A stretch of 64,000 bases of DNA from Fimbriimonadaceae bacterium (lineage in GTDB: Bacteria > Armatimonadota > Fimbriimonadia > Fimbriimonadales > Fimbriimonadaceae): NCBI GenBank assembly GCA_023957775.1, contig JAMLGR010000004.1, forward strand, positions 188,930 to 252,929, written 5' to 3'. Position 1 is the first letter of the stretch. The number at the start of each line of letters is the position of its first letter. Position numbers and translations under genes: made by a program. Of the stretch, positions 10,411-49,872 are shown in pieces. The notes below the pieces were generated by a model. It made no database searches and was not told the DNA's origin. It was given only the letters and a program-made list of their open reading frames with translations.

Positions 10411-10614
10411 GAGCTTCCATGTGGAGGACGGGTGGGGGGACCCATATGTTCTGCGCGCAGGGCCAGAGTGCCAGGTGCTGCTGGCCGGGGCTTGCCGAGG
10501 GGTACAACGAAACTCGCGACCGTCGGCGACGCGCCACTTGAAGACGCTCCCGCTGCTTTCGAACGAAGAAGCGGTGCAGCCGGGACTCACCCCTGACACG
10601 GGTCGCACCTGCCG

Positions 10615-20729: not shown

Positions 20730-20963
20730 CTAGTCGGACTTCTTCACCCACTCGCCTCCCTTCTTCTCGTACTTCTCCTTCACGGCCGACCACGCGACCT
20801 TGAAGGCGACCTCTTCGGGATCGTCGTCCTTGTTGCGACGCTCGTCGGGGTCGCTGTACTCCTTCACCGCGCTGTTGAACGCCTCCTTGAAGATCTCCTG
20901 CGCGTGTTTGGGGAGGTTCTCCCTCACGCGGTCCGGCAACTCCTGAATGCTGCTGTATGGCAT
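20730..20963 (-). CDS. chaB: ChaB-family protein (cation transport regulator ChaB homolog)
   Basis: MPYSSIQELPDRVRENLPKHAQEIFKEAFNSA...KVAWSAVKEKYEK closely matches the E. coli ChaB pattern. Start at the MPY Met inside ORF 20730..21143. Confidence 0.8.
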   Translation of the reverse strand: MPYSSIQELPDRVRENLPKHAQEIFKEAFNSAVKEYSDPDERRNKDDDPEEVAFKVAWSAVKEKYEKKGGEWVKKSD

Positions 20964-21132
20964 GGTCATCGTCTCCTTGGGCGGGGTCGTCTGCCGCGTT
21001 GCCCACCCCCTCTCCCGACGCGCTTCGGGAGGTCTCGGTCCCCCCTCTAGCGCCTTTCCTACGCGCCTGCCGGCGGCGAACTGGGCGCAGGTTGGCGAAG
21101 GGAAGGGGGGATCGCGCATAATCCGAGGTGGC

Positions 21133-22947: not shown

Positions 22948-24743
22948 AATCCCGGATCAACGATTTCGCGTTCAAGATCGCCACGGTCAACGGCACTGGC
23001 TCGGCCAGCGCCAACGCCTTGATCATGCAGACCATCTTCCGGATGGGCATTCCGGTCACGGGCAAGAACCTGTTTCCATCGAACATCCAGGGCCTTCCCA
23101 CCTGGTACGAGTTTCGGGTCAGCAAGGACGGCTACACGGCGCGCACCCCGGATTTCGATTTGATGGGCGCCTTCAACAAGGCGACCTTTGACGACGACGT
23201 CGCGGAACTGCGGTCGGGCGGTTATCTGCTGTACGACTCCACCTGGCCGCTGGACGAGAGCAAACTCCGCAACGACGTCGTCTACCTCGGGATTCCTTTC
23301 GCCCGATTGTGCAACGAAGCGTTCGGCGGGGTGCGCGAGCGCATCTTGATGAAGAACATCGCCTACGCGGGGGCGTTGGCAGCCTTGCTGAACCTGGACC
23401 CCGAAATCCTGTCGGAGCTTGCGAAGGAGAAGTTCGGTCGCAAGCCCGCGCTGCTCGAATCGAACCAGCGAGCCATCGAGCTGGGTTTCAACGGCGCCAA
23501 GGAGCGGTTCGCCTGTCCCCTTCCCATCGCGTTGGAGCCGATGGACGAGACCAAAGACTGCATCCTCATCGACGGCAACGCGGCCGCCGCCCTCGGCTGC
23601 CTCTACGCGGGGGCGACGGTGGGCGCCTGGTATCCGATCACCCCGGCCACGTCGCTGATGGAGTCGTTCAACGGGTTCTGTCAGCGCTACCGCAAAGACC
23701 CCGTGACGCAGAAGAACCGGTTCGCGATCCTGCAGGCCGAGGACGAACTGGCCGCGATAGGCATCGTGATTGGGGCCTCCTGGGCGGGTGCGCGCTCCTT
23801 CACTCCCACCGCGGGGCCCGGAATCTCGCTGATGAGCGAGTTCCTGGGGCTTGCCTACTACGCAGAGGTGCCGGCGGTGGTGTTCGACGTGCAGCGCACC
23901 GGGCCGTCCACGGGCATGCCGACGCGCACCCAGCAGGGCGACCTGATGCTGTGCGCCTACGCCTCGCACGGCGATACCAAGCACATCTGCCTCTACCCCT
24001 CCGACCCGCGGGAGGCCTTCGAAATGGCCGTCGCGGCCTTCGACCTCGCCGAGCGGTACCAGACGCCGGTGATGGTGCTCACCGACCTCGACATCGGGAT
24101 GAACGACTGGATGGTGCCGAAGCTCAAGTGGGACGACACGTACCGGCCCGACCGAGGCAAGGTGCTCTCGCCCGAGCAGCTCGACGCCATCGCGAAGTTC
24201 TCCCGCTACCTCGACGTCGACGGGGACGGCATTCCTTATCGGACCCTTCCCGGCCAGCACCCGAAGGGCGCCTACTTCACACGCGGTTCGGGACACAACA
24301 AGCACGGGCTCTACACGGAGGACGGCGACGAGTATCAGGAGGTCCTCGATCGCTTGGCGACCAAGATCCAAGGTGCCGCGAAAGCCGTGCCCGCCCCCGT
24401 GATGGCCAAGCAGGACGGGGCGAAGATGGGCATCGTGACCGTGGGTGGATGCCACGCCGCCTGCGTCGAAGCGAGGGATCAGCTTGCCGCCGAGGGCATT
24501 GCCTCGGACTACATGCGCGTGCGCGGCTTTCCCTTCGGGGACGAGGTGCGCGAGTTCCTGGAGGCCCACGAGACGAACTTCGTGGTCGAGCAGAACCGCG
24601 ACGGGCAGCTTCGAAGCCTGCTCGCTCTGGAAACCGGGGTGTGCTGCGAGCGGCTTGACTCCGTGCGCTACTACGCGGGCTATCCGATGAGCGCCCACCA
24701 CGTGGTGGAGGGGATCAAGAGCCAGATCCGGAGGACCGCATGA
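22944..24743 (+). CDS. korA: 2-oxoglutarate:ferredoxin oxidoreductase subunit alpha
   Basis: Starts MKSRINDFAFKIATVNGTGSASANALI, a typical KorA N-terminus, with OFOR alpha-domain pattern throughout. The upstream 167 codons of ORF 22443.. are Arg-rich junk. Confidence 0.85.
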   Translation: MKSRINDFAFKIATVNGTGSASANALIMQTIFRMGIPVTGKNLFPSNIQGLPTWYEFRVSKDGYTARTPDFDLMGAFNKATFDDDVAELRSGGYLLYDSTWPLDESKLRNDVVYLGIPFARLCNEAFGGVRERILMKNIAYAGALAALLNLDPEILSELAKEKFGRKPALLESNQRAIELGFNGAKERFACPLPIALEPMDETKDCILIDGNAAAALGCLYAGATVGAWYPITPATSLMESFNGFCQRYRKDPVTQKNRFAILQAEDELAAIGIVIGASWAGARSFTPTAGPGISLMSEFLGLAYYAEVPAVVFDVQRTGPSTGMPTRTQQGDLMLCAYASHGDTKHICLYPSDPREAFEMAVAAFDLAERYQTPVMVLTDLDIGMNDWMVPKLKWDDTYRPDRGKVLSPEQLDAIAKFSRYLDVDGDGIPYRTLPGQHPKGAYFTRGSGHNKHGLYTEDGDEYQEVLDRLATKIQGAAKAVPAPVMAKQDGAKMGIVTVGGCHAACVEARDQLAAEGIASDYMRVRGFPFGDEVREFLEAHETNFVVEQNRDGQLRSLLALETGVCCERLDSVRYYAGYPMSAHHVVEGIKSQIRRTA

Positions 24744-25795
24744 GCTACATCACGAAACCCAAAGTCCACCACCCTTCGCTCAAGCGCAATGCGATCGGGC
24801 TGACCCGCCGCGACTACGAAGGCTCGCTCACCACGCTCTGTGCGGGGTGCGGCCACGACTCGATCACCGCGGCGATCATCCAAGCCTTTTGGGAATTGGA
24901 CGTCGAGCCGCACAAGGTCGCGAAGATGTCGGGCATCGGCTGCTCGTCCAAAACGCCGGCTTACTTCCTCAGGGAGGCGCACGGGTTCAACAGCGTGCAC
25001 GGCCGCATGCCGTCGGTGGCGACGGGCGCCGCGGCGGCGAACCGCGAGATGATGATGATCGGGATCTCCGGCGACGGGGACTCCCTCTCGATCGGTCTCG
25101 GACAGCTCTGCCACGCGATGCGCCGCAATCCGAACCTGCTCTACGTGTTGGAGAACAACGGCGTGTACGGCCTGACGAAGGGCCAGTTCTCCGCATCGGC
25201 CGACCCGGGTTCCACCAGCAAGCGCGGCGAGCCCAACACCATGGCCTCGATCGACAGCGTGTTGTTGGCCCTGAACCTCGGCGCCACGTTCGTCGCGCGC
25301 AGCTTCTCGGGTGACAAGGAGCAGCTGGTCCCGATCCTCAAGGCGGGACTGGCGCACAAGGGGTTCGCCTTCGTCGATGTGATTTCGCCGTGCGTGACCT
25401 TCAACGACCACGTGGGCTCGACCAAGAGCTATGCGTACACGCGCAAGCACCAGATCGAAGTGGTCCACGCCGACATGATCATTCCGCGCGACGAGATCAC
25501 GGCCCAGTACGCGGCCGGCGAGGTGCACCGCGTCCAGCTCCACGACGACAGTTGGATCATGCTGCGCAAGGTCGAGGACGATTACGATCCCACCGACCGC
25601 GACCGGGCATACGCCCACATCCGAGCCCACCAGCGCGTGGGCGAGGTACCCACGGGGCTGCTCTACGTGGGAACGGACCTCGCGGACATGCACGAGCAGA
25701 TGGGCACCATCCCCGAGGCCCTTACAGACCTGCCCTTCGAGGATCTGTGCCCCGGCGACGCCGCCCTTCAGAAGCTCCAAGAGCGATTTAGATAG
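24740..25795 (+). CDS. korB: 2-oxoglutarate:ferredoxin oxidoreductase subunit beta (TPP-binding)
   Basis: TPP motif GISGDGDSLSIGLGQL. Cys residues CAGCGHD/GIGCSSK. ATGA overlap with korA. Confidence 0.85.
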   Translation: MSYITKPKVHHPSLKRNAIGLTRRDYEGSLTTLCAGCGHDSITAAIIQAFWELDVEPHKVAKMSGIGCSSKTPAYFLREAHGFNSVHGRMPSVATGAAAANREMMMIGISGDGDSLSIGLGQLCHAMRRNPNLLYVLENNGVYGLTKGQFSASADPGSTSKRGEPNTMASIDSVLLALNLGATFVARSFSGDKEQLVPILKAGLAHKGFAFVDVISPCVTFNDHVGSTKSYAYTRKHQIEVVHADMIIPRDEITAQYAAGEVHRVQLHDDSWIMLRKVEDDYDPTDRDRAYAHIRAHQRVGEVPTGLLYVGTDLADMHEQMGTIPEALTDLPFEDLCPGDAALQKLQERFR

Positions 25796-25896: not shown

Positions 25897-28800
25897 ATGG
25901 TATTGCTTCTCGCGCTTCTTGCTTCCGCTGCGGCTTCGACGCCGCTTGAGTTCGCAAAACAGGAGATCGCGGCCGCTGCCGGCTCGCGGGCGGGCGAGGT
26001 CGAACTGGCGGTGCGATCCTCGTTGGGTGCCGAGAGCTACACCATCGCTCCGCGCGGGGGCAAAGTGCGTATCGAGGGAGGCGATCCTGTGGGGGTCATG
26101 TACGGGGCGTTCGAGTTCGCCGAGCGGGTGAAAAACGACCCTGCAGGGGCATGGAGCGCCAAGGCGCAGGGCAAGCCGTACCTTCCCGAGCGGGGGCTGA
26201 ACCTCTTCCTCACACTTCCTTGGAACTACGCCAAGAACGACACCGAGTACGACCCGGCGGCCTTGGTGGATCCCAAGCGCTGGTGGTTCCAGAACGACGC
26301 GTACTGGACGTCCCTGCTCGACCTCATGGCCCACAGCCGCCTGAACTGGCTCGACATTCATGGCACGTGGGACATCAGCGTGACCGACGCGCCCAACCTC
26401 TACGCGTACTTCGTCACGGCCCCTTCGTTCCCCAAGGTCGGGGTGAGCCCGGAGATCAAGGCCGCCAACCTCGCGCAGCTCAACCACGTGATCGACATGG
26501 CGCACGCGCGGGGCATTCGCGTGAGCCTCATGGCGTATCAGGCCAGCCTCAGGATCCCCCAGAACCCGAACCCGCCATACGAGGGGACCGAGGAGAACGT
26601 CTACGCCTACACGCGCGAAGCCGTCGAGCAGATGATCCGCAACGCTCCGGGACTCGACTCGATCGGATTCCGGATCGGCGAGAGCGGGCACGGCGGGTCG
26701 TTCTTCACGTGCTACGGCGAGGCGGTCAAGAACTCGGGGCGGGACATCCCGCTGATCACGCGCAGTTGGGTCACGCGGCGCCAAAGCGTGCTGCCTCTGG
26801 CGCGCGCGTCGAAGGACTTCACCGTCGAGATCAAGTACAACGGCGAACACTGGGGCGCGCCGTACATGGTGGCCGGCGGCCGCGTGGCCAACTGGTACAG
26901 CTACTCCTTCGAGGACTACCTCAGCGACCCCGGCAAGCCCGAAACAAACGCCAAAACATGGCCAGGCTGGCCCGCCGAAGCCCCCGCCGAAGGCAGGTGG
27001 CCGAGCGAACCGTACAAGATCGTGTGGCAGGTGCGCGCGAACGGAACGCACCGCATCTTCCCCTTCTACAACCCCGAGTGGGTGCGCCGCTCGATCCTCT
27101 CGATGAAGATGGGCACGGCCTCGGGATACACGATCGAGGGTGAGGACGCCTATTTCCCGAAGCAGCCCGACTACTACATGGCCGACCCCTCGAAGAAGGG
27201 GTACGAGTGGATCCACCAGCGCGACGCGATGTACTGGACCACCTGGGGCCGCCTGGGCTATGACCCGACCGTGAAGGACGAGGTGTTCGACGCCGAGACC
27301 GCTCGGATGTTGGGCAAGGGGAGCGAGGCGCTCGTTCAGGCTTGGAAAGAGGCGAGCACCCTGTTGCCGTTGGCGTTCATGGCGTACGCGCTGGGGCCCG
27401 ACCACCGCAGCCACGCGCCGGAGCTGGAATGGGGTGGCGACACGCCCACGTTCATCCAGGGACAAGGGTTCGACACCCACTCGTTCCTTCCCATCAACGA
27501 GGAGTTGGCCAACGCGGCCACCGGAGGGTTGGACGGACGCATCGGCTCGTTTGCCACGTCCGAACTGCTGCGATTGCGCGCCAAGCGGGTTCGAGCAACG
27601 CTTGACCAGATCGCGGTTCCGGGCGGGCGCGGCCCCGAGATCGCCAACGCCTCGCGCCTGATGTCGGACCTTGCGGAGTACTACGCCCAGCGGCTACTTG
27701 CCGCCTGGTCGATGGCGAAGGTGGAATCTGTCTCCGGAGTGGCCCAGCGGTCTTCGGGTGATCCCGTGGATACCGACGCGATCCAGTGGGCGGCCGACGC
27801 GTCCCGGCGTCTTGCCGACAACCCGTTCTACAAGCCGTTCACCGATCGGCTTCGGATGCACACGAACACGTTTGCCTGGGCCCAGGAGACGGCCAAGGTC
27901 GCGGCGGAGTCCAAGCGCATTCTGTCGCTTCCCAAGGCTGTGCCTCCGATCTCGACGGAGGACCCGCTCCGTCCGGTTCGGTTTGGCAAGGCGAACCTTG
28001 AGTGGCGTGTGTCGGGTGGCAACATCGTCGTTCGCCTCGATGCACGGGGAAGCGACGCGGCGTGGCTGCTGGAGAAGCCCCTTCCGAGTTCGACGTTCTT
28101 CCACAAGGTCCCGATGCGACGAGTCGGCGACCACTTCGAGGCGACGTTCCCGCGCCAGAAGTGGGGGCACCAGATCGCCGTGGAGATCCGCGACGGCGGG
28201 GCTGTTTGGCGGGAGCCGTCCCCGGCGGAGGCCCGCCCCTACCTTGTCGTGCCCAGCCAACCGGGCCCCACCCCGCCGATCTACAGCGCCGAGGAGGCAA
28301 TGGCGTACCTCAAGCCTGAGGCGCTCGACCCCTCCCAGTACGGCGGGATGCTGCTCGGCACTCGGGCGTGGCGCTTCTTCACGTCGTTCGACAAAGCCAC
28401 GCAGCGCAAGCTGCTCGACCCCATCGAGCGCGGCATGCGTCTCGTGATCCTCCAGCAGGATTTCAACAAGTACAAGCTCGACTGGCTTCCCAAGCCGTTG
28501 AAGTTCGAGGGGGGCAACTGGGGCGTGTTCGACCCGGGAGGCCAACTCGGACTGTCCAAGGTCGAAACCGCCGACATCCTATGGCAGAGGTTCCTGCCGA
28601 GCGACGGGTGGGAGGTGTTCGGCAACGGCGGACTCGCCCGGCTGAAACTCGGCAAGGGAGAGGTGTGGGTCACCAGTGCCCGCCTCATGCAGCGCATGCA
28701 CATCCCGTCGGCCGCGAAGGCGTTCGTGGCGTTGCTCAGTCTGGGCGGGAAGACGAAGCCTACGGTGCTCATCGACAGCAACAGCGAGGGTGCGGACTAC

Positions 28801-30657
28801 TCGAGTTCGAACCATCCCGACCTGATGAACGCGCACGACATCCCGTTCCTGACCTTGGGCGAGGTGATCGCGCGGGAGCAGGGGATGGACTCCGCCACCG
28901 TGGTGCCGGGTCCCACCCTCGACGACGACGTGCTGGAGGGCAAGGGGTCTGCGGTCGTTGCGGCGTATCAGCGTGCGAAGGTCGTGCAGGCCGCCAGGCG
29001 GACCGTTCCGGCAGACAGGCCGGCGTTTCAACGCGAGCGCGCGCGCCGACGGGCCGAACTGATGCGCTCCCTCGGCCTCGACCCCCTGCCGTCGCGCACG
29101 CCTCTCAACGCACGCACGACCGGGGTGCTGCAACGGTCCGGCTACAAGATCGAGAAGGTCGTGTTCGAAAGCCGCCCTAAGTTCTATGTGACGGCCCACG
29201 TGTACGTGCCGGACGCGCCGGGCAAGCATCCGGTGATCATGAACGTGAACGGGCACTGGGCGCACAAGAAGGACGAGGACCGCATCCAGTTGCGCTGCGC
29301 GTTCCAAGCGCTGCGCGGCTACCTGGCGATCGCCATCGACAGCCCGGGGCACAGCTTCGAGGGCAACAGCCTTATCGAGCGCCGCGCCGAGGGCGAGCAC
29401 AACGACTGGTTCTTGGTCCAGGGAGGGTTGAACGCGACCGGCGTGTACGTGTGGGATGCGATGCGCGCGCTCGACTACGTGACGACCCGCCCCGACGCCG
29501 ACATGGCGCACGTGGGATTGACCGGCGCGTCGGGTGGCGGGTTGGCGACGCTCTACGCCTTTGCCGCGGACGATCGGTATCAGGCCGCGGTTCCGGTCGT
29601 GTACATGGCGAGCATGGAGTTGGCGCCGGACAACGGGTGCCTGTGCAACCACGTTCCGGGGACGCTGCAGATTGGCGACCGCTCCGACGTCATCGCGATC
29701 CAGGCGCCCAAGCCCGTGCTCCTGATGGGGGCGGAGAACGACGGCGAGTTTCCCGCCGACGCCACGAGGCTGACCGGCGCGAAGATGCAGCGGGAGTGGG
29801 GCCTCTTTGGCGCCTCGGGCGCGGTGACGACGCGGATCTTTCCTGGCGGGCACGATTACAGCAAACCCATGCGGGAGGCGATGATCGGGTTCTTCGACCA
29901 CGCCCTGCGCGGGGTGGGCGACGGTTCGCCCGTGCCCGAGCCCGCCCTCCAGGCGTTGGACGCCGAGGATCGGTCGCTGTTGGTCCTTCCCGATCCGCCG
30001 TCCGACGAGCGCACGATGCGCGAATTGGCGCGCGAAGCCCTTGGGCACCCCGGGCGTTACACCCTTGCCGACGTGAACGGAGGGTTGCCGCCGCGGAGCG
30101 ATCTGCGTTATGTGGAAACGGGCTCGGGCTCGAAGCGCGCCGTTGTCTTCGAGTCGGAACCCGGCCTGCGGACCCCGGGCATCCTCCTTCTGCCCAAGGC
30201 GAAGGTGGACACCGTGCGGATCGTCGTGGACGATCGTGGGAAGGCGGCCGCCGTCGCGGAGTTTGACGGGAAGCAACGAGCGGGGGAAGCCGTGCTGTTC
30301 TTGGACACGCTCGGCATCGGCGAATTGGCCGAGGTGAATCTGCGCTACGCCATCTATCTCGGCACGGCCGTCCCCTATACCGCGGGGTGGCAGATCGCAA
30401 GGGCCATCGAAGCGATGAAGCGGTACGGATCCGCCTTTGTGATCGAAGCCCGCGGACCCTTGGCCTCGATGGCCGCGCTGGACGCGGGCCTTCTCGCGCC
30501 CGATGCCGCGCGAATCGAGGCCAGCGGAGGCCTGCAGCGTTGGGAGGATGTGTTCGACACGTCGGCCAACCCGTTGCTGGTTCAGCCGCGCGCCAACCTG
30601 CTGCCGCCGCTGGATGCGCTGCGCGGATCCGTACCGAACGCCGTATGGCGCGGATGA
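25897..30657 (+). CDS. giant secreted multi-domain protein (1586 aa): N-terminal GH20b/GH67N-like + TIM-barrel hydrolase-like region, central unknown region, C-terminal alpha/beta-hydrolase (acetyl-esterase/S9-like)
   Basis: Signal peptide MVLLLALLASAAAS. Conserved block VMYGAFEFAERV followed by a TIM-barrel-like segment. C-terminal part has HVYVPDAPGKHPVIMNVNGHW and GLTGASGGG (GxSxG nucleophile elbow). RBS GGAGG 8 nt upstream of the ATG. Confidence 0.7.
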   Translation: MVLLLALLASAAASTPLEFAKQEIAAAAGSRAGEVELAVRSSLGAESYTIAPRGGKVRIEGGDPVGVMYGAFEFAERVKNDPAGAWSAKAQGKPYLPERGLNLFLTLPWNYAKNDTEYDPAALVDPKRWWFQNDAYWTSLLDLMAHSRLNWLDIHGTWDISVTDAPNLYAYFVTAPSFPKVGVSPEIKAANLAQLNHVIDMAHARGIRVSLMAYQASLRIPQNPNPPYEGTEENVYAYTREAVEQMIRNAPGLDSIGFRIGESGHGGSFFTCYGEAVKNSGRDIPLITRSWVTRRQSVLPLARASKDFTVEIKYNGEHWGAPYMVAGGRVANWYSYSFEDYLSDPGKPETNAKTWPGWPAEAPAEGRWPSEPYKIVWQVRANGTHRIFPFYNPEWVRRSILSMKMGTASGYTIEGEDAYFPKQPDYYMADPSKKGYEWIHQRDAMYWTTWGRLGYDPTVKDEVFDAETARMLGKGSEALVQAWKEASTLLPLAFMAYALGPDHRSHAPELEWGGDTPTFIQGQGFDTHSFLPINEELANAATGGLDGRIGSFATSELLRLRAKRVRATLDQIAVPGGRGPEIANASRLMSDLAEYYAQRLLAAWSMAKVESVSGVAQRSSGDPVDTDAIQWAADASRRLADNPFYKPFTDRLRMHTNTFAWAQETAKVAAESKRILSLPKAVPPISTEDPLRPVRFGKANLEWRVSGGNIVVRLDARGSDAAWLLEKPLPSSTFFHKVPMRRVGDHFEATFPRQKWGHQIAVEIRDGGAVWREPSPAEARPYLVVPSQPGPTPPIYSAEEAMAYLKPEALDPSQYGGMLLGTRAWRFFTSFDKATQRKLLDPIERGMRLVILQQDFNKYKLDWLPKPLKFEGGNWGVFDPGGQLGLSKVETADILWQRFLPSDGWEVFGNGGLARLKLGKGEVWVTSARLMQRMHIPSAAKAFVALLSLGGKTKPTVLIDSNSEGADYSSSNHPDLMNAHDIPFLTLGEVIAREQGMDSATVVPGPTLDDDVLEGKGSAVVAAYQRAKVVQAARRTVPADRPAFQRERARRRAELMRSLGLDPLPSRTPLNARTTGVLQRSGYKIEKVVFESRPKFYVTAHVYVPDAPGKHPVIMNVNGHWAHKKDEDRIQLRCAFQALRGYLAIAIDSPGHSFEGNSLIERRAEGEHNDWFLVQGGLNATGVYVWDAMRALDYVTTRPDADMAHVGLTGASGGGLATLYAFAADDRYQAAVPVVYMASMELAPDNGCLCNHVPGTLQIGDRSDVIAIQAPKPVLLMGAENDGEFPADATRLTGAKMQREWGLFGASGAVTTRIFPGGHDYSKPMREAMIGFFDHALRGVGDGSPVPEPALQALDAEDRSLLVLPDPPSDERTMRELAREALGHPGRYTLADVNGGLPPRSDLRYVETGSGSKRAVVFESEPGLRTPGILLLPKAKVDTVRIVVDDRGKAAAVAEFDGKQRAGEAVLFLDTLGIGELAEVNLRYAIYLGTAVPYTAGWQIARAIEAMKRYGSAFVIEARGPLASMAALDAGLLAPDAARIEASGGLQRWEDVFDTSANPLLVQPRANLLPPLDALRGSVPNAVWRG

Positions 30658-30687: not shown

Positions 30688-32304
30688 TCAGGGGGCTGGG
30701 CGATTTGGAAGTTGGAGCTGATCGAGGTACGCGTCCTCAAACCCGGGATCGAGATTGAGCTCCACCACCTCGACGCCATCGCGCACTCTCTCCAACTCCG
30801 CGAGCGTGTTGCGGTCGAGGAGTGCCAAGGTCGCGCCGGCCAGGGACGTGTTGCCCACCAGCTCGATCTGCGGGATCGTGAAGCCGGGGAGCAGGCCGCA
30901 CGCGATGGCGTTGCGCAGGTCCAGATGCATGCCGAAGCCGCCGGCCAGGTAGAGCGTCCTCACATCGGAGGGGGTCAGCCCGTGGCGGCGCAGGAGGGTG
31001 AGGATGCCGGCGGCGATCGCGGCCTTCGCCTGAAGGAGGCGCGCGACGTCGGCCTCGGACACGAGGATCGGCCGCTTGCCCTGGCCCCACGCGACACGGA
31101 CCGCCTGCCCGTGGGGGGTGTCCACCACGTGTTCGTCGAGGCCGTCCAAGGCCTGGAACCGACCCGTCGCGCCGAGCAGCCCGCACCTTCGGCCCTCGGC
31201 GAGCATGTCGACGTAGCCCGAGCCGCAAATGCCCGTCGGTTTCAGGGCTCGCGGCCCGATCTTCTCCCACCGGACGCAAAAGGGGGCCGTGCCCATCGCA
31301 ATCCGGGAAATCGCACCTTCGCCCGCCCGGATGCCTCCCGAGAGCCCCGAGCCCTCGAACGCGGGACCCGCCGCCGTCGCACAGGCTGAAGTCCGTCCCA
31401 CGTCGCGCAGAAGGATCTCGCCGTTGGTTCCCACGTCGACGAGGAGGCTGGGGCCGTCGTCGTAGAGCAGTCCCGAGGCAAAGGCCCCGGCCGCTATGTC
31501 CGCACCGATGTAGGCCCCGATCGACGGAAGGAGGCGAACGAACGCGCCGGCGGGCTCAAGACCGATGCGCTCGGCTTGGAACGGCTCGCGCGAGAGAAAA
31601 CGCGGCGCGAAGGGCGCCACGCCCATCGGGGAAGGGTCCTCGCCGACGAGCAGGTGGAGCATCGTCGTGTTTCCGGCGACGGTGTACCCGACGACCCGCT
31701 CCGGGTCTCCGACCGCCTGACGGACCAGCGGCCGCAGGGTTTGCTCGACGAGGGACGCCTGCATTCGTCCGAGCATCGCGGGGTCGGTTGCGCACAGGTT
31801 GATCCGGGTCAGCACATCGTCGCCAAAGTGCATCTGTCGGTTGAATCCCGAGGCTTTGCCGACGATTTCGCCGGTCGCCAGGTCCACCGCCTGCAGCGCA
31901 ACGGTCGTGGTCCCCACGTCGACGGCGATTCCGAGCCCGTCTGCGGCGAGAGGATCGTGCGCGTACGGGACGTTGATGCGGTAGCTGTCGAGAACTTGGG
32001 GCGCGTACGCCAGGCGAGAGCGTTGAGGGATTCGGATGGCGGCGAACTCCCCAGTGGGCCGATAGCGGCAGCCTCGGACTTCCACGGAATCTCCCCGGGA
32101 CACGGTCAACGAGGTGCCGTCTGCGTGTTCCAGGGTTCCTCGCACCAGTTCGACGAGGCACCCCGCGCACATGTCCTTCTCGCCGCAGCGCGTGTTGAGT
32201 GCGAGGTCGTGGCCGCGCAGGATCTGGGCGAGGCTGCGCCGGGCCTGGTCTTGGGTCAGAACGAGCTCCCGCGTGCCATCTGGGAGCTGGACCTCAATCC
32301 GCAT
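30688..32304 (-). CDS. RACo-type reductive activator of corrinoid proteins (N-terminal 2Fe-2S ferredoxin + ASKHA/DUF4445 ATPase domain)
   Basis: N-terminal C-x5-C-x2-C...C ferredoxin motif (RCGEKDMCAGC ... RGC). Large ASKHA-like remainder with glycine-rich phosphate loops (DVGTTTV, DVGTNGE). Confidence 0.7.
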   Translation of the reverse strand: MRIEVQLPDGTRELVLTQDQARRSLAQILRGHDLALNTRCGEKDMCAGCLVELVRGTLEHADGTSLTVSRGDSVEVRGCRYRPTGEFAAIRIPQRSRLAYAPQVLDSYRINVPYAHDPLAADGLGIAVDVGTTTVALQAVDLATGEIVGKASGFNRQMHFGDDVLTRINLCATDPAMLGRMQASLVEQTLRPLVRQAVGDPERVVGYTVAGNTTMLHLLVGEDPSPMGVAPFAPRFLSREPFQAERIGLEPAGAFVRLLPSIGAYIGADIAAGAFASGLLYDDGPSLLVDVGTNGEILLRDVGRTSACATAAGPAFEGSGLSGGIRAGEGAISRIAMGTAPFCVRWEKIGPRALKPTGICGSGYVDMLAEGRRCGLLGATGRFQALDGLDEHVVDTPHGQAVRVAWGQGKRPILVSEADVARLLQAKAAIAAGILTLLRRHGLTPSDVRTLYLAGGFGMHLDLRNAIACGLLPGFTIPQIELVGNTSLAGATLALLDRNTLAELERVRDGVEVVELNLDPGFEDAYLDQLQLPNRPAP

Positions 32305-33052
32305 CTGGGGGCGCGGCCTCCACCACTCGCTCGTCGGCCGTCATGCGGAGTGTCTGCCCCGGCTCCAGCACGAGGAAGCGCTCGGCGTCCCATTCGCCAT
32401 TCAGGAGGGCCTTCAGCAGTTCGGGATCGCCCTGTTGCCGGTCGAAGCTCCACCCGAGCCAATGGGCGCACTTCTTCGTGAACGCGACGTCCTCTTCCGT
32501 CGCGCCTGGGCCGAGGTCCACGTAGGTCGCTCGGTCGTAGGTCGAGAACCAGTGCTGTTCGGTCTCCATGAGGTAATCCGCGTTGTCCTCGCCGTACTTC
32601 TCCGCGTACTCTGCGCGGAGCAGACGGTGCCGCTCCTCGCCCGGGGGCAGGTGGTGCTTGTTCCAGCCGGGGCTGTACCAGTAGGTCCCCGGCGCCTGGC
32701 GCACATACTCGGCGTACCGTTCTTTGCTGCCCAGCAACACGGTGATGCAGTCGTGGGCTCGCGGGATCACCAGTTTCGCCCTCGCTGCCCGCACGCCCTC
32801 CGTGCCCCGGCTGCACAGCCCGTAGCCCAGCACGATGGCCTCGGCCTCGGTCTCCCTCTCGGCCTTGTCGATCGCGTCCTGGAGTTCGCGTCGCAAGCGC
32901 TCCGGTTCGTTGTGCAGGCCTTGGGGCATCAGGTCGATGCGGACGATGTGCTCCAGTCCGCGGGCAAAGTGCGCGATCTCGGTTTCGAGAACGGAGCAGG
33001 TGATGACCACCGTGCGGGGGTTCCGATTGTTGGCCTTGGATCTGTGCGCCAC
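32294..33052 (-). CDS. DUF1638 domain protein (family typically linked to corrinoid methyltransferase clusters)
   Basis: Composition and length typical of DUF1638. Overlaps the RACo start by 11 bp, so the two form one operon. Divergent from the corrinoid operon. Confidence 0.55.
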   Translation of the reverse strand: MAHRSKANNRNPRTVVITCSVLETEIAHFARGLEHIVRIDLMPQGLHNEPERLRRELQDAIDKAERETEAEAIVLGYGLCSRGTEGVRAARAKLVIPRAHDCITVLLGSKERYAEYVRQAPGTYWYSPGWNKHHLPPGEERHRLLRAEYAEKYGEDNADYLMETEQHWFSTYDRATYVDLGPGATEEDVAFTKKCAHWLGWSFDRQQGDPELLKALLNGEWDAERFLVLEPGQTLRMTADERVVEAAPPDAD

Positions 33053-33176
33053 CGTGGGGATGATACGAGGTTTCTGCCCTCGGTTTGTCGCCGTTTTGGC
33101 CTACAGGGGGGATCGTCTTGGCTCGGGTATTACGGAGTGGTCGTCCTCGTGACGATCGCAAGGAGGTGCATCCTCG

Positions 33177-33815
33177 ATGAATCAGTCGCAGCCCCTCACC
33201 GACGCCGTAATCGCGGGGAACCGGAACGAAGCGACCCGGCTCACGTCCGAAGCGCTCGCGGAGGGCAACGATCCCCGGGAGGTGCTCGCCGCGTTGGTGG
33301 CCGGGATGGACGAGGTGGGCGGACGGTTTCAACGCAACGAGGCCTTCGTACCGGAGATGCTGATCGCCGCGCGGGCGATGAAGGAGAGCATGGCCGTGCT
33401 CGAACCGGTCCTCGTGAAGGCCGGAATCCGCCCCGAGCGCACTGCGGTGATCGGCACGGTGCTGGGCGATCTCCACGACATCGGCAAGAACCTGGTGGCG
33501 ATGATGTGGCGGGGCGCCCACTTCGAGGTCGTCGACCTTGGCACCAACGTCCCGCCCGAGCGGTTCGTCGAGGCCGCGCGGACGCACGACGCCGACTTGA
33601 TTGGCCTATCGGCTCTGCTGACGACCACGATGCCGTCCATGAAGGAGACGATCCAGGCCATCCGCAGCGCCGGTCTCAGGGCCAAGGTCATCATCGGCGG
33701 CGCCCCGATCACGCCCGAGTTCGCGCAGCAGATCGGAGCGGATGCGTTCGCGGCCGACGCCGCCAGCGGTGTTGAGATCGCAAGGGCGATGTTGACGCAC
33801 GGAGACCCCCCCTAG
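33177..33815 (+). CDS. B12-binding corrinoid protein (MtaC/MtbC-like methyltransferase cognate corrinoid protein)
   Basis: DxHxxG cobalamin-binding motif (GDLHDIGKNLV) with following Rossmann-like B12-binding domain and N-terminal helical cap. AAGGAGG RBS upstream. Confidence 0.85.
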   Translation: MNQSQPLTDAVIAGNRNEATRLTSEALAEGNDPREVLAALVAGMDEVGGRFQRNEAFVPEMLIAARAMKESMAVLEPVLVKAGIRPERTAVIGTVLGDLHDIGKNLVAMMWRGAHFEVVDLGTNVPPERFVEAARTHDADLIGLSALLTTTMPSMKETIQAIRSAGLRAKVIIGGAPITPEFAQQIGADAFAADAASGVEIARAMLTHGDPP

Positions 33816-33820
33816 GCCCC

Positions 33821-34900
33821 ATGCGTACCTCGCGCCTCTCCAGCCGCGAACGGGTCGCGCGCATGTTCAAGAGGCAGGATCACGACTGCATCCCCCGCGC
33901 CGACAGCTTCTGGACTGAAACTTCCGAACGCTGGAGGAACGAGGGGCAGGAGGGCGACCTCAACGCCTTTCTCGGAACCGATTTCAAGGCGCTTTCGTGG
34001 AGCGATCCCCGGCCGTTTCCCGGGCAGAAGCGCCTTGTGTCCGAAGACGGTAGGACGCAGACCTTCGTGGACGAGTGGGGGAACACGGTGCGTTATTGGA
34101 AACATCGCTCCGGCACCCCCGAGCACGTCGCGTTCGGGTGCACGTCCCGACGCGAGTGGGAGGAGACGTACAAGCCTGCGCTGTTGGCGGCTTGGCCGTT
34201 CGTCAACCCCTACGCCTCGTATCGAGACTTCGAAAGCGGTCGGCGCAACGGCCTCTGGACCTACCTGTGTGGTTTGGAGACGTTCGAGATGACCCGCCGT
34301 CAGTTGGGTGACGAGGTGTTCCTCATCGGGATGATCGAGGATCCCGAGTGGATCGTCGATGTGTCGAGAACGATGACCGGGCTTGTCCTCAGGGATTTCG
34401 ACCTCCTGATGGACCGCGGCGTGAAACCCGACGGGGTCTGGATCTACGGCGACATGGCGTATCGGCGCGGCACGATGTGTTCGCCCGCGATGTACCGGGA
34501 GTTGGTCTGGCCCGATCACAAGCGCATGGCCGATTGGGCGCACGCGCGCGGTCTGCCCTTCATCTTCCACACGGACGGCGACGTCAAAGGGGTGCTGGAG
34601 CACTACATCGAAGCGGGATTCGACTGCCTTCAGCCGCTGGAAGCGAAGGCGGGGATGGACGTCCGATCGTTGTCCCCTGTTTATGGCGAGCGACTGGCCC
34701 TGTTCGGGAACATCGACGTGATGGTGATGGCCACCAACGACCTGGAACTCGTCGAGCACGAAGTCCGGACCAAGCTCCAGGCGGGCATGGCCACCCGAGG
34801 ATACGCGTATCACTCGGACCACTCGGTTCCCCCGACCGTGAGCTGGGAGACCTACGAGTTCGTGATCGATCTGGTCGATCGCCATGGGAACTACGATTGA
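33821..34900 (+). CDS. URO-D/MtaA-family methyltransferase paralog 1 (putative substrate:corrinoid methyltransferase)
   Basis: ~359 aa, the size of the uroporphyrinogen decarboxylase/MtaA family. N-terminal SRERVARMFKRQDHDCIPR matches the family N-terminal helix. HTDGD in the position where MtaA carries its H-x-C zinc ligands. Confidence 0.7.
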   Translation: MRTSRLSSRERVARMFKRQDHDCIPRADSFWTETSERWRNEGQEGDLNAFLGTDFKALSWSDPRPFPGQKRLVSEDGRTQTFVDEWGNTVRYWKHRSGTPEHVAFGCTSRREWEETYKPALLAAWPFVNPYASYRDFESGRRNGLWTYLCGLETFEMTRRQLGDEVFLIGMIEDPEWIVDVSRTMTGLVLRDFDLLMDRGVKPDGVWIYGDMAYRRGTMCSPAMYRELVWPDHKRMADWAHARGLPFIFHTDGDVKGVLEHYIEAGFDCLQPLEAKAGMDVRSLSPVYGERLALFGNIDVMVMATNDLELVEHEVRTKLQAGMATRGYAYHSDHSVPPTVSWETYEFVIDLVDRHGNYD

Positions 34901-34901
34901 G

Positions 34902-36032
34902 ATGAACGACCGCCAGCGATTCTTGGCCACGATGCGGTACCAGACGCGCGATCGGGTGCCGATCTGCGACTTCGGGTTCTGGTCGGAGACGATCGAGGTC
35001 TGGAAGGACCAGGGTTTGCCCGAGCACTGGACGGACACCACGACCTCCGACTTCCTCGGGATGGACCGCTTTGAGGGACCGGTTGGGATTCGAGATTCTC
35101 TCGACCCCTCGTTCGAGGAGTTCGTCCTCGAGGACCGTGGGGATCAGGAGGTCGTGCAGGGCGGGGACGGCGTTCGCACCCTGCGGCACAAGTTCATGAG
35201 CTCCATTCCCATGCACGTGGGGCACCTTCTCACCGATCGCGAGAGCTGGAACAAGCACTACAAACCTCGACTCGACCCCTTGTCCCCCGCGCGCTTTCCG
35301 GCCACTTGGGAAACGCGGGTCGAACGCTGGAAGAGGCCTGATCGGCCCTACTGTCTCACCCTTCCCGGCGGCAGCCTGTACGGCTGGATCCGAAACTGGA
35401 TGGGGGTGGAGAACGTGTCGTACTCGGTCTACGACGATCCCGCCTGGTTCGAGGAGATGGTGGAGACCGTGTGCGTGTTGATCGAGGGGATCCTGACCCG
35501 GGCATTCGAGTCGGGCGTCGCCTTCGACTCGTGCGGGATGTGGGAGGACATGTGTTACTCCGGCGGCCCGCTGCTGGGTGTGGATCACTTCAAACAGTAT
35601 CTGGTGCCTCGCTACCGGCGCATCACCGACCTCTTGCGCAAAAACGGGGTGGAGGTGATCTGGCTCGATTGCGACGGCAACATCGAGAAGCTCATGCCTT
35701 TGTGGCTGGACGCCGGCGTCAACTGCATGTTCCCCATCGAGATCGGCACGTGGGGCGCGGATCCGGTGCGCTACCGCAAAGAGTACGGCAAGGCGCTGTT
35801 GATGATGGGCGGCTTCGACAAGCACATCCTCGCCGGACCGAAGCCCGGCATCGTCGAGGAGGTCGAGCGGTTGACACCGCTGGTCGAGGAGGGCGGCTAC
35901 ATTCCGTTCTGCGACCACCGGGTGCCTCCGGACGTCCCGCTCGAGAACTACCTCTTCTACCTCTCGCTGGCCCGCGAGAGGTGGGGCAAGGGAGTGAATC
36001 TCAAACCGATGTGGGAGGTGGGGGGCGCGTGA
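34902..36032 (+). CDS. URO-D/MtaA-family methyltransferase paralog 2
   Basis: MNDRQRFLATMRYQTRDRVPICDF family-typical N-terminus. ORF track starts it at 34884 (MGTTIE..), overlapping paralog 1 by 17 bp. The ATG at 34902, 1 bp after the upstream stop, is preferred. Confidence 0.7.
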   Translation: MNDRQRFLATMRYQTRDRVPICDFGFWSETIEVWKDQGLPEHWTDTTTSDFLGMDRFEGPVGIRDSLDPSFEEFVLEDRGDQEVVQGGDGVRTLRHKFMSSIPMHVGHLLTDRESWNKHYKPRLDPLSPARFPATWETRVERWKRPDRPYCLTLPGGSLYGWIRNWMGVENVSYSVYDDPAWFEEMVETVCVLIEGILTRAFESGVAFDSCGMWEDMCYSGGPLLGVDHFKQYLVPRYRRITDLLRKNGVEVIWLDCDGNIEKLMPLWLDAGVNCMFPIEIGTWGADPVRYRKEYGKALLMMGGFDKHILAGPKPGIVEEVERLTPLVEEGGYIPFCDHRVPPDVPLENYLFYLSLARERWGKGVNLKPMWEVGGA

Positions 36033-37126
36033 CCGAGCGCGAGAACCTGCTGCGCATGCTGGCCGGTGAGCGGGCCAGCCACCTGCCGCTCGACGTCTGG
36101 CTGACCGCACCGTCGCTTGCCATGGTCGAGGCGCACCGGGGCACGCGGGACCCGGTGGAGGCTCTTGGCCTCTCGGTGGAACGGGTGGGACCGCGGTTTC
36201 CCGCGCGTCCCGACGCCTGGCGCGAGTCTTACCGCGAGCTAGGCTTCGCCGTCCACCCGGAGGCGATTTTGGGTGCGCTCGGTACGGTGGACGACGTGCC
36301 GCCCGCCCACTCGCTCGGCGATGCCTATCACCTGCTGGAGATGCGCCACCCGCTCTCGGGAGAGGTGACGGTCGCCCAACTCGCGAGCCTTCCGTTTCCG
36401 GACGTGGACTCGCCGGAGCCCTACCGGCATCTCCCCGACCACTTCGCCGAGATCCACTCCAAAGGCATCACGTCGATCGGTCAGATGGACTGCACGATGT
36501 TCGAGATGACCTGGTACCTGCGCGGCATGGATCGGGTGTTCCTCGATCTTGTCGATGGAACCGGGGCGGCGGATTGGTTGCTCGATTGGTTCACCCACCG
36601 TTCGGAGGTCGGGGTGGCCCACTACGTGCGGGCGGGGGCGGATATTGTGTGGCTCGGCGACGATGTCGGCACCCAGCGCGGGATGATGATGGCGGTCCCC
36701 TTCTGGCGCGAACACCTGAAGCCCCGCCTCAAGCGCGTGGTCGCGGCCGCGCGCAACGCCCAGAACCGCGAAGTATGGATCGCCTACCACTCGGACGGCG
36801 ACATTCGCCCCATCATCCCCGACCTGATCGAGATCGGGATCGACATCCTGAACCCGGTGCAGCCCGAGTGCATGCCGCTCGAAGAGGTCGTGGCCGCCTA
36901 CCGGGAGCGCCTCGCGTTTTGGGGAATGATCGGCACGCAGACCACGATGCCTTTCGGCACTCCGGACGACGTCCGTGCGGCCGTGGGGCGGGTGAGAGAT
37001 TTCGCCTGCGGCGGTTGCAGGATGGTGGTTTCTCCCACCCACGCCATCGAACCCGACGTGCCGTGGCGCAACCTGGAGGCGTTGATCGAGGATGTGAAGA
37101 CGCCGCTCTTCGGAGAGCGGCTTTGA
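36029..37126 (+). CDS. URO-D/MtaA-family methyltransferase paralog 3
   Basis: GTG start overlapping the upstream stop (GTGA). VTERENLLRMLAGERASHLPLD family-typical N-terminus. HSDGD motif. The upstream part of ORF 35471.. is Arg/Gly-rich out-of-context sequence. Confidence 0.7.
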   Translation: MTERENLLRMLAGERASHLPLDVWLTAPSLAMVEAHRGTRDPVEALGLSVERVGPRFPARPDAWRESYRELGFAVHPEAILGALGTVDDVPPAHSLGDAYHLLEMRHPLSGEVTVAQLASLPFPDVDSPEPYRHLPDHFAEIHSKGITSIGQMDCTMFEMTWYLRGMDRVFLDLVDGTGAADWLLDWFTHRSEVGVAHYVRAGADIVWLGDDVGTQRGMMMAVPFWREHLKPRLKRVVAAARNAQNREVWIAYHSDGDIRPIIPDLIEIGIDILNPVQPECMPLEEVVAAYRERLAFWGMIGTQTTMPFGTPDDVRAAVGRVRDFACGGCRMVVSPTHAIEPDVPWRNLEALIEDVKTPLFGERL

Positions 37127-38007
37127 ATTGGCTCGGGGCTGCCCTGGCGGAGGGTCCGTTGCTCGGGGACGGGGCGATGGGCACGATGCTGTTTCGGGCA
37201 GGCTTGGCGCCGGGGGCGAGCGCCGAGTTATGGAACGTCGAGCAGCCCGATCTTGTGGCAGGGGTGCATCGCGGCTACGCGGAAGCGGGCTCGGCGTTTG
37301 TGACGGCCAACACGTTCGGCGCGACGCCGCTCGCGTTGGCCCGCCACGGGCTTGCCGATCGCACGGCGGAGTTGAATGCGGCCGCGGTGGCCCTCGCGCG
37401 CGAGGCAGTGGGCGACCGCGTTCGGGTGATGGGCGACATCGGCCCCTTCGGCGGTTTCCTCGAGCCTTACGGCGAGGCGTCGACCAAGGCGGTCGAGGAG
37501 ACGTATCGCGCGCAGGTCGCCGCGCTTCGGGTGGCGGGAGCGGATGGCGTTCTCGTCGAGACGATGGTGGACCCGAACGAACTGACGATCGCCGTTCGCG
37601 CCGCGCGCCAGGCCGGGGATTGGCCCGTGCTCGCGAGCTACGCCTTCCAGCGGATGGGCGCGGAGTTCCGGACGATCATGGGGACCGGCGTCGCCGAGGC
37701 CCTTGGGGCCGCCTTCGATGCCGGGGCCGACGCCGCGGGCGCCAACTGCGGCACCAACCTCTCTTTGGACGACTACTTGCAGCTCGCCGACGAGTTGGTG
37801 GCCGCGGCCAAGGGGCGGCCGGTGGTCTTGCAACCCAACGCCGGGCCTCCGCGCGCTTCGGGCACGGAGATCGAGTACTCCGCGACGCCCCAGGAGATGG
37901 GGAAGTGGGCGGCACGTGCGGCCGAGGTCGGCGTGCGCGTGTTGGGAGGGTGCTGCGGCACGACCCCCGCGCATGTGGCCGCCATGGCGCAGGTTTTGCG
38001 GCGCTAG
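37123..38007 (+). CDS. stand-alone homocysteine S-methyltransferase domain protein (MetH N-terminal/BHMT/MmuM-type, zinc)
   Basis: LLGDGAMGTML N-terminus and GGCCGTTPAHV zinc-ligand motif typical of Hcy-binding domains. Proposed TTG start at 37123, overlapping the upstream TGA, with GGAGAG 5 nt upstream. The alternative ATG at 37177 would truncate the conserved N-terminus. Confidence 0.7.
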   Translation: MNWLGAALAEGPLLGDGAMGTMLFRAGLAPGASAELWNVEQPDLVAGVHRGYAEAGSAFVTANTFGATPLALARHGLADRTAELNAAAVALAREAVGDRVRVMGDIGPFGGFLEPYGEASTKAVEETYRAQVAALRVAGADGVLVETMVDPNELTIAVRAARQAGDWPVLASYAFQRMGAEFRTIMGTGVAEALGAAFDAGADAAGANCGTNLSLDDYLQLADELVAAAKGRPVVLQPNAGPPRASGTEIEYSATPQEMGKWAARAAEVGVRVLGGCCGTTPAHVAAMAQVLRR

Positions 38008-49828: not shown

Positions 49829-49872
49829 GGTGGCTCGAGGTTACCGGGAACCGGATAGAATCGAATCGAGCC

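Follow-up and report, generated by a model that had tools for sequence, protein, structure and literature searches.

A putative corrinoid-dependent hub for methyl transfer with a split methionine synthase at its core, in Fimbriimonadaceae and other bacteria

A 64,000-nt stretch of DNA from a Fimbriimonadaceae bacterium (contig JAMLGR010000004.1, positions 188,930 to 252,929; the whole stretch is referred to as the window, G+C content ~65%) carries at positions 30688-38007 a divergent locus of seven genes, G1 to G7, which encode an activase of corrinoid proteins, a DUF1638 protein, a corrinoid carrier protein, three proteins of the URO-D superfamily and a homocysteine-binding methyltransferase module. 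Based on the domain identities, the conservation of motifs, the packing of the operon and the synteny across phyla we consider it probable that this locus is a corrinoid-dependent methyl-transfer hub that is built on a split methionine synthase (MetH), to which URO-D-type feeders have been added and which hands the methyl groups over to homocysteine to yield methionine. The module is most likely a widespread, uncharacterised variant of the split B12-dependent methionine synthases that were described recently, with the combination of URO-D feeders and homocysteine module as the new part.

Two of the genes lie on the minus strand, i.e. G1 (30688-32304, 538 aa), coding for a RACo/RamA-like ATP-dependent reductive activase of corrinoid proteins, and G2 (32294-33052, 252 aa), coding for the DUF1638 protein. 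The plus strand carries G3 (33177-33815, 212 aa), which encodes the stand-alone corrinoid (B12) carrier protein, followed by G4 (33821-34900, 359 aa), G5 (34902-36032, 376 aa) and G6 (36029-37126, 365 aa, GTG start), which represent lineages 1, 2 and 3 of URO-D-superfamily methyltransferases, and by G7 (37123-38007, 294 aa, TTG start), which encodes a MetH-type homocysteine-binding zinc methyltransferase. All seven open reading frames (ORFs) lie where an earlier, sequence-only reading of this DNA had placed them and agree with the NCBI gene calls for contig JACJXA010000008.1 of the Fimbriimonadaceae metagenome-assembled genome GCA_020636875.1; the motifs and bidirectional layout described in that reading were confirmed, as were the domains in Pfam searches. 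Homology at the N-terminus to the homocysteine domain of MetH requires the TTG start of G7. For G5 the start is probably 34902, as called by NCBI, rather than 34884, which would give 382 aa; conservation among the orthologs sets in at M7. The genes are packed as tightly as had been claimed: G3 and G4 are separated by 5 nt, G4 and G5 by 1 nt (or overlap by 17 nt with the start at 34884), 4-nt overlaps are found at G5/G6 and G6/G7, and G1 and G2 overlap by 11 nt. By this packing G3 to G7 appear to be translationally coupled.

G1 consists of an N-terminal four-Cys ferredoxin-like domain, a RACo middle domain and a C-terminal ATPase domain of the ASKHA type. Both RACo domains are strongly recognised by Pfam (Raco_middle, 4e-42; RACo_C_ter, 4.4e-68), which bears out the proposed RACo-type activase; the Fer2 match of 19.3 bits stays under the 21-bit cut-off, but the four cysteines of the C-x5-C-x2-C...C pattern are nonetheless present in the sequence. 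The NCBIfam models AcsV (313 bits) and RamA (114 bits) both match G1 under their respective cut-offs. G2 belongs to DUF1638 (Pfam, 3.6e-41), whose members in different phyla are 60-87% identical; a structure model of G2 had no informative structural neighbour. In most related loci G1 and DUF1638 are encoded beside the corrinoid gene, and G2 presumably aids the reactivation or handling of the corrinoid.

G3 is composed of a cap domain (B12-binding_2, 1.1e-20) and a Rossmann domain (B12-binding, 3.1e-30) with the DxHxxG motif in the form GDLHDIGKN; the extended motif GDLHDIGKNL is invariant across 59 G3 orthologs. Among solved structures the corrinoid protein 1Y80 from Moorella scores highest (182 bits), followed by the trimethylamine corrinoid protein 7XCN (130 bits) and by 4JGI from Desulfitobacterium hafniense (128 bits), which we take to be the corrinoid protein of an O-demethylase, whereas the best MetH chains reach ~105 bits. 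By these scores G3 is nearer to the free-standing corrinoid proteins of methylotrophic and O-demethylase-type systems than to the B12 domain of MetH, and it matches the NCBIfam model MtgC with 183 bits, under the cut-off of 370.

S-methyl_trans (PF02574, 1.3e-62) is the sole domain of G7 and spans residues 13-291 of 294, i.e. neither a pterin-binding nor a B12 domain accompanies it, as had been read from the sequence. The motifs GANCG and GGCCG, which form the Cys3 zinc site, are invariant in 25 orthologs. Scores against solved structures are 148 bits for the homocysteine domain of Thermotoga maritima MetH (1Q7M), which fits the split MetH-like architecture suggested earlier, and 124 bits for Thermus MetH vs 61 for MmuM and ~50 for BHMT, so that G7 is by sequence a homocysteine module of the MetH type and not of the MmuM or BHMT type. 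The family of stand-alone proteins of ~295 aa to which G7 belongs is large, with 4,521 matches at E<1e-20.

The URO-D family of Pfam matches G4 (2e-16), G5 (1.4e-11) and G6 (9.8e-15) at profile positions 209-345, 161-345 and 153-344 of 346, respectively. The three proteins are mutually 23-28% identical (G5 vs G4 26%; G6 vs G4/G5 23-27%), but each is 59-78% identical to its own ortholog in other Armatimonadota (G5 75-78% to the orthologs in related loci L002 and L004, G6 59% to that in L002), and thus they are not recent duplicates. A sequence search of G4 against solved structures gave nothing significant (E >= 0.09), and only a fold search with the AlphaFold (AF2) model of G4 (pLDDT 91.3) was informative; UroD and MtaA were the best hits, MtaA 4AY7 having the highest TM-scores (0.66/0.70) at 13% identity and UroD structures being on top when ranked by E-value. 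A profile alignment places H250-T-D252 of G4 onto the H-I-C motif of MtaA, which holds two of the zinc ligands of MtaA. The corresponding metal motifs are H-T-D in G4, D-C-D in G5 and H-S-D in G6, and there is no conserved third Cys. HTD and Y-H-S-D-H-S (330-335) of G4 are invariant in 87 sequences, W-x-D-C-D-G and D-H-R-V-P-P of G5 are conserved in 28 sequences, and Y-H-S-D-G and P-T-H-x-x-E-P of G6 in 19. The NCBIfam models for MtaA and MtbA score 18-37 bits on G4 to G6 vs cut-offs of 235-600. The likeness to O-demethylase systems noted in the sequence-only reading therefore holds at the level of the superfamily, but not beyond it, G4 being only 13-18% identical to MtaA and UroD structures. 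In the UroD family, S-methyltransferases have a His-Cys-Cys site, whereas O-methyltransferases have carboxylates in place of Cys (Kountz and Balskus, PMC10418091), and the Asp/His residues at the zinc-cysteine positions of MtaA may be taken as a lead towards O-methyl donors for G4 to G6. The long proteins among the 150 best relatives of G4 are a tandem URO-D fusion or carry unannotated extensions; P0485 (686 aa), a distant relative of G4, is a tandem URO-D-URO-D fusion.

In the mechanism that we propose, G1 would use ATP and its ferredoxin-like cluster to reduce oxidised G3 to Co(I), with DUF1638 (G2) assisting in this reactivation. G4, G5 and G6 would act as donor:corrinoid methyltransferases (MT1), each loading the methyl group of a different small donor onto Co(I)-G3 to give CH3-Co(III), the donors most likely being O-methyl compounds because Asp or His occupies the zinc-cysteine positions of MtaA. 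G7, a copy of the homocysteine module of MetH that stands free and has kept its Cys3 zinc site, would finally serve as methyl-corrinoid:homocysteine methyltransferase (MT2), passing the methyl group to homocysteine to form methionine. Our guess is that the donors are glycan-derived methyl ethers; for O-methyl sugars the only support is the Asp/His-for-Cys motif and a neighbourhood rich in glycan-related genes, as is usual in these phyla.

Relatives of G4 were found in at least 584 species genomes in an alignment-based scan with one genome per species, and the loci of the 80 best relatives (53-89% identical) were analysed. These loci stem from Armatimonadota, Verrucomicrobiota and Planctomycetota plus one Anaerolineae genome, the groups represented being Fimbriimonadaceae, Capsulimonadaceae, Opitutae, Chthoniobacter, Luteolibacter, Phycisphaerae and Tepidisphaerales, including the isolate Fontivita pretiosa. 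A corrinoid gene is present in 53 of the 80 loci, in 30 of them upstream of the G4 ortholog at a distance of less than 250 nt, RACo in 39, DUF1638 in 34 and the homocysteine module in 24. The set is found again in dozens of genomes of three or more phyla and is therefore not a product of chance, and the comparison of gene neighbourhoods called for in the sequence-only reading shows the module to be conserved as a unit across phyla. The G6 lineage is the usual direct neighbour of the gene for the homocysteine module (15 of 27 cases). From the side of G7, eight neighbourhood look-ups of relatives at 50-60% identity gave a similar picture: seven adjoin a corrinoid protein, and of these seven, six are accompanied by RACo and DUF1638 and six by URO-D genes.

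The composition of the loci ranges from very small to large. Locus L090 is a bare core of RACo and DUF1638 on one side and corrinoid protein and homocysteine methyltransferase on the other, without a URO-D gene, and L087, L091 and L006 are minimal modules with a single URO-D gene of the Cys type (U345, HxC...C); in L092 the homocysteine gene stands alone. Since bare-core and one-feeder loci exist, we regard the core as a platform that gains feeders. At the other end, the number of URO-D-like genes per locus reaches ten, with a median of five, in the 27 well-flanked loci with a corrinoid gene, and across the loci at least eight URO-D-like lineages can be distinguished, three of which are barely recognised by Pfam. 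AraC regulators and transporters of the major facilitator superfamily (MFS) also occur in these methyltransferase islands. Moreover, full-length homologs of MtaB (PF12176, methanol:corrinoid methyltransferase family, 545 bits) are found in feeder position in 12-14 related loci (L009:7906-9333 and L089:4203-5582; also L010, L011, L016, L018, L041, L050, L056, L061, L063, L066 and L075), and in Fimbriimonadaceae, Phycisphaerae and Verrucomicrobiia MtaB sits between the corrinoid gene and the G4 ortholog. To judge from this gene order, MtaB in feeder position shows that the shared carrier would accept methyl groups from small C1 donors. As the taxa with MtaB are neither methanogens nor acetogens, a corrinoid-dependent use of methanol, e.g. 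from pectin esters, is suggested. We speculate, as a possibility that falls clearly short of the hub itself in likelihood, that the URO-D islands of Armatimonadota, Verrucomicrobiota and Planctomycetota, in which as many as ten divergent URO-D-like genes and MtaB surround a single corrinoid protein, carry out an oxygen-tolerant, B12-dependent demethylation of glycan-derived compounds in which the methyl group reaches methionine without folate; donors may then be methanol from pectin esters, 2-O-methyl-fucose, 2-O-methyl-xylose and 4-O-methyl-glucuronate.

Several further arrangements were observed in the related loci. A group of three genes, which code for an AraC regulator, a Fe/2-oxoglutarate dioxygenase of the PhyH type (PF05721, 6e-41) and a URO-D-like protein, is found three times in L084 and occurs in L070 (8954-9985) and L086, each URO-D lineage having its own dioxygenase. 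Directly beside the corrinoid gene, the minimal one-feeder modules encode a small DUF6580 protein (L006:13244-13780, L087:6734-7273, L091:6735-7274), possibly a component of corrinoid uptake or handling, and a hydrophobic protein of 189 aa is encoded in a similar position in L013 (16632-17201). The cluster in L093 combines URO-D, DUF1638, RACo, Amidohydro_2, AraC, the corrinoid protein and U345; neither a homocysteine nor a pterin methyltransferase is encoded within 10 kb of it, and it is flanked by genes for an FGGY kinase, a xylose-isomerase-like protein, GH4 and lyxose isomerase.

Our full-text literature search found no description of clusters of URO-D, corrinoid and PF02574 genes in these phyla. 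The sequence-only reading could not point to a characterised system with the same composition; the novelty is lower than implied there as close precedents exist which it had not named, i.e. the split MetH that depends on a RamA-like protein and on DUF1638, the hub MtgBCDE, and those mlp clusters that lack a folate methyltransferase. Genetic evidence in Phaeobacter shows that methionine synthesis depends on three separate MetH modules, a RamA-like protein and DUF1638 (10.1101/192971). The system of Ruegeria, likewise shown genetically, has a single corrinoid protein, MtgC, for the demethylation of glycine betaine as well as for methionine synthesis; its partners are the stand-alone homocysteine subunit MtgE, the pterin subunit MtgD, which works in both directions, and as many as seven feeder paralogs of the MttB type (PMC12478193). 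With these systems of the Rhodobacterales (Phaeobacter inhibens PGA1_c13350, c13370 and c16040; Ruegeria pomeroyi MtgC, MtgD, MtgE and MtgB) our locus shares the separate corrinoid protein and PF02574 subunit, a RamA/RACo-type activase that replaces the activation domain of MetH, the DUF1638 partner, the principle of one carrier with several alternative methyl-donor methyltransferase paralogs, and hosts that are non-methanogenic heterotrophs and not strict anaerobes. It differs in that the feeders belong to the URO-D superfamily instead of MttB/pfam06253, in that no pterin subunit is linked and the homocysteine gene lies within the operon of the feeders, and in the phyla concerned (Armatimonadota, Verrucomicrobiota and Planctomycetota).

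The four-component O-demethylases of acetogens and Desulfitobacterium (MtvABC, Odm, Vdm) also combine an MT I of the URO-D superfamily, here again a likeness at superfamily level only, with a small corrinoid protein and a RACo-type activase. Their MT II, however, is pterin-binding and forms methyl-tetrahydrofolate, whereas the MetH-type homocysteine module is the only second methyltransferase of our locus, and the hosts are not Wood-Ljungdahl anaerobes. Type 1 mlp clusters resemble the locus in having several UroD-like genes and no folate methyltransferase, and a link to methionine has been proposed for them, too (PMC10418091). Yet the Mlps possess a His-Cys-Cys zinc site and ~30% identity to coenzyme M methyltransferases, whereas G4 to G6 have H-x-D or D-x-D; they occur in obligate anaerobes, mostly Firmicutes, with methyl-S/methyl-Se compounds as proposed substrates, and that paper reports no PF02574 gene in the mlp cluster, the homocysteine gene being an addition here. 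With canonical MetH, G3 and G7 would share the chemistry, i.e. CH3-Co(III) plus homocysteine giving methionine, and G7 is homologous to its homocysteine module with the Cys3 zinc site kept. In contrast to MetH, the functions reside on separate proteins, pterin domain and SAM (S-adenosylmethionine)-dependent activation domain are missing, and reactivation would be ATP-dependent via RACo.

Several observations weigh against the hub. The URO-D matches of G4 to G6 are weak (44-60 bits) and cover only the C-terminal 40-55% of each protein, and the identity to solved structures is 13-18% at most; none of the 150 best relatives is a G4-type protein fused to a B12 domain. About 14 G4 orthologs are solitary, with no corrinoid gene within 10 kb, which means that either their partners are unlinked or G4 is able to act without them; the neighbours of these solitary genes (GH1, GH78 with a LacI-type regulator, a peptidase, a phosphate transporter, PrmC) are mixed and not decisive on the substrate. 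Ten of the 27 well-flanked corrinoid loci have neither a homocysteine methyltransferase nor Pterin_bind nearby, and Opitutae loci set MTHFR and FTHFS beside the island, hinting at a folate route. Finally, homocysteine would be a poor stoichiometric sink for catabolic demethylation, and a large donor flux would call for another acceptor; if the flux is small, e.g. from scavenged methanol or minor O-methyl sugars, methionine could plausibly be made directly.

Of the other explanations, the one that fares best, although we give it less than half the weight of the hub, is that the locus is a housekeeping split MetH which is fed mainly by CH3-tetrahydrofolate via a pterin subunit encoded elsewhere, the URO-D genes being accessory or merely co-located. 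It overlaps with the hub and is partly contained in it, i.e. if a pterin-binding subunit exists elsewhere in the genome, the core very probably serves ordinary methionine synthesis as well. The bare core of L090 fits this explanation, as does FTCD, a folate enzyme encoded in the window, which implies that folates are in use. It does not account for the tight packing of three URO-D genes between the corrinoid gene and G7, for the position of G4 as the next gene after the corrinoid gene in 30 of 53 loci or for the greater proximity of G3 to methylotrophic corrinoid proteins than to the B12 domain of MetH. Moreover, tblastn and hidden Markov model (HMM) searches, including the pterin domain of Escherichia coli MetH, detected no pterin-binding domain (PF00809, Pterin_bind) in the 64 kb of the window. 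This absence is no proof of folate independence, since the pterin-binding subunit of split MetH is encoded at a distant locus in Phaeobacter and Ruegeria (10.1101/192971; PMC12478193).

Rather unlikely, in our view, is a catabolic O-demethylase that uses tetrahydrofolate as sink via an unlinked methyltransferase, either pterin-binding or of the URO-D type, with subsequent oxidation and with G7 as a minor anabolic branch. The stoichiometric argument against homocysteine as bulk sink would favour it, and so do six of the 80 related loci that contain Pterin_bind, some together with MTHFR and FTHFS (the HMM finds no others), as well as a YitJ-like MTHFR with FTHFS in Opitutae. The islands of Opitutae end with this YitJ-like S-methyl_trans-MTHFR fusion (L021:9268-11184; equivalents in L013, L017, L028, L033, L040, L060 and L085), often along with an MFS transporter and FTHFS, so that a folate C1 branch adjoins the corrinoid island even where a Pterin_bind methyltransferase is missing. 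The sequence-only reading had held that a canonical pterin-binding methyltransferase in the operon of orthologous loci would speak against it; such a gene does occur in these six loci, but it never shares a locus with the homocysteine module (0/80; hypergeometric p ~0.02 for the 53 corrinoid loci, uncorrected for relatedness, four of the six being near-identical in architecture), which suggests that the two are alternative second methyltransferases or sinks. In addition, the homocysteine methyltransferase is four times commoner than Pterin_bind, and nothing linked to folate adjoins the cluster in the window.

It is very improbable that G7 works alone and independently of the cofactor, with S-methylmethionine, dimethylsulfoniopropionate (DMSP), betaine or SAM as donor, and is merely co-transcribed with the corrinoid system. 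Precedent exists, and counts against the hub, in Bmt from Phaeobacter, a stand-alone PF02574 protein that makes methionine from DMSP or betaine in vitro (PMC12366255), and G7 matches the BHMT-type NCBIfam model PRK07534 with 205 bits, under its cut-off. On the other hand, the scores of G7 for MetH domains far exceed those for MmuM and BHMT, and seven of eight family members adjoin a corrinoid protein. There is next to no chance that G4 to G6 are true uroporphyrinogen decarboxylases in a locus for tetrapyrrole supply, as the name of the Pfam family and the E-value ranking of the fold search might imply, because the hemE equivalog model TIGR01464 gives 20.1 bits for G4 (cut-off 302.95) and no match for G5 and G6, the identity to UroD structures is only 12-18% with MtaA having the highest TM-score, and three to ten divergent copies per locus lie alongside the corrinoid-protein machinery; an assignment as HemE was rejected on this model, as the sequence-only reading had expected.

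The surroundings of the locus are rich in genes for glycan degradation, and the glycoside hydrolases (GH), sulfatase and esterases mentioned in the sequence-only reading were found in the window (GH20, GH2-like, GH95, GH27 with NPCBM, GH106, SASA and AXE1-like esterases, a sulfatase). As to other methyl-transfer genes, the 64-kb window holds no pterin-binding methyltransferase, MTHFR, FTHFS, MtaB or further URO-D families. A protein of 1,586 aa is encoded convergently to G1 at 25897-30657 (+), ending 30 nt from the G1 stop; apart from a segment that resembles AXE1/S9 esterases (residues ~1084-1240) and a faint likeness of its N-terminus to GH20b, most of it is unannotated. At 20947-25795 (+) a Pyr_redox/Fer4 protein similar to the small subunit of glutamate synthase precedes a 2-oxoacid:ferredoxin oxidoreductase encoded as alpha/gamma and beta subunits, and together with a cytochrome c7-like protein (1588-2820) these make up low-potential redox features; Fimbriimonadaceae are described as aerobic. 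Four sizeable ORFs with coding-type GC3 have no Pfam match at E<=1e-5 (8506-10608(-), 49807-51861(+), 51866-52963(+) and 53026-54285(+)).

Both promoters presumably lie in the divergent intergenic region between G2 and G3 (33053-33176, 124 bp). In the sequence G3 is preceded by an AGGAGG ribosome-binding site, and no match to the sigma-70 consensus was found in the intergenic region. Against Rfam, the window gave no riboswitch or other family at the gathering threshold, 32900-33300 gave none even with E relaxed to 1, and eight related loci gave nothing except one tRNA; an alignment of the intergenic regions of five loci (the window and four related ones) shows no shared motif that would indicate a conserved operator. 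At 37102-37121 (+), where G6 stops and G7 starts with TTG, the sequence GCCGCTCTTCGGAGAGCGGC forms a perfect hairpin of 8 bp with UUCG as its loop and is followed by TTTGAATT; terminator-like matches in the region are at chance level (4 observed vs 3.8 expected).

If the proposed hub is real, environmentally abundant glycan degraders, i.e. freshwater and soil Opitutae, Phycisphaerae, Tepidisphaerales and Fimbriimonadaceae, would use B12 beyond MetH, via a modular demethylation hub that feeds methionine. Several large URO-D-like families that are now labelled 'uroporphyrinogen decarboxylase' or 'hypothetical' would thereby obtain a function, and DUF1638 would be tied to corrinoid-protein function in a second independent context. 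The principle of one carrier and many feeders, described for quaternary amines in marine Alphaproteobacteria, would be extended to other phyla and to another methyltransferase superfamily, and would allow an oxygen-independent handling of O-methylated sugars or of methanol from plant and algal walls. It would also be a further reason for the corrinoid dependence of these communities, and should the more tentative demethylation of glycan-derived compounds hold true as well, the degradation of polysaccharides would be tied to the methyl cycle and to the demand for B12 in soils and waters.

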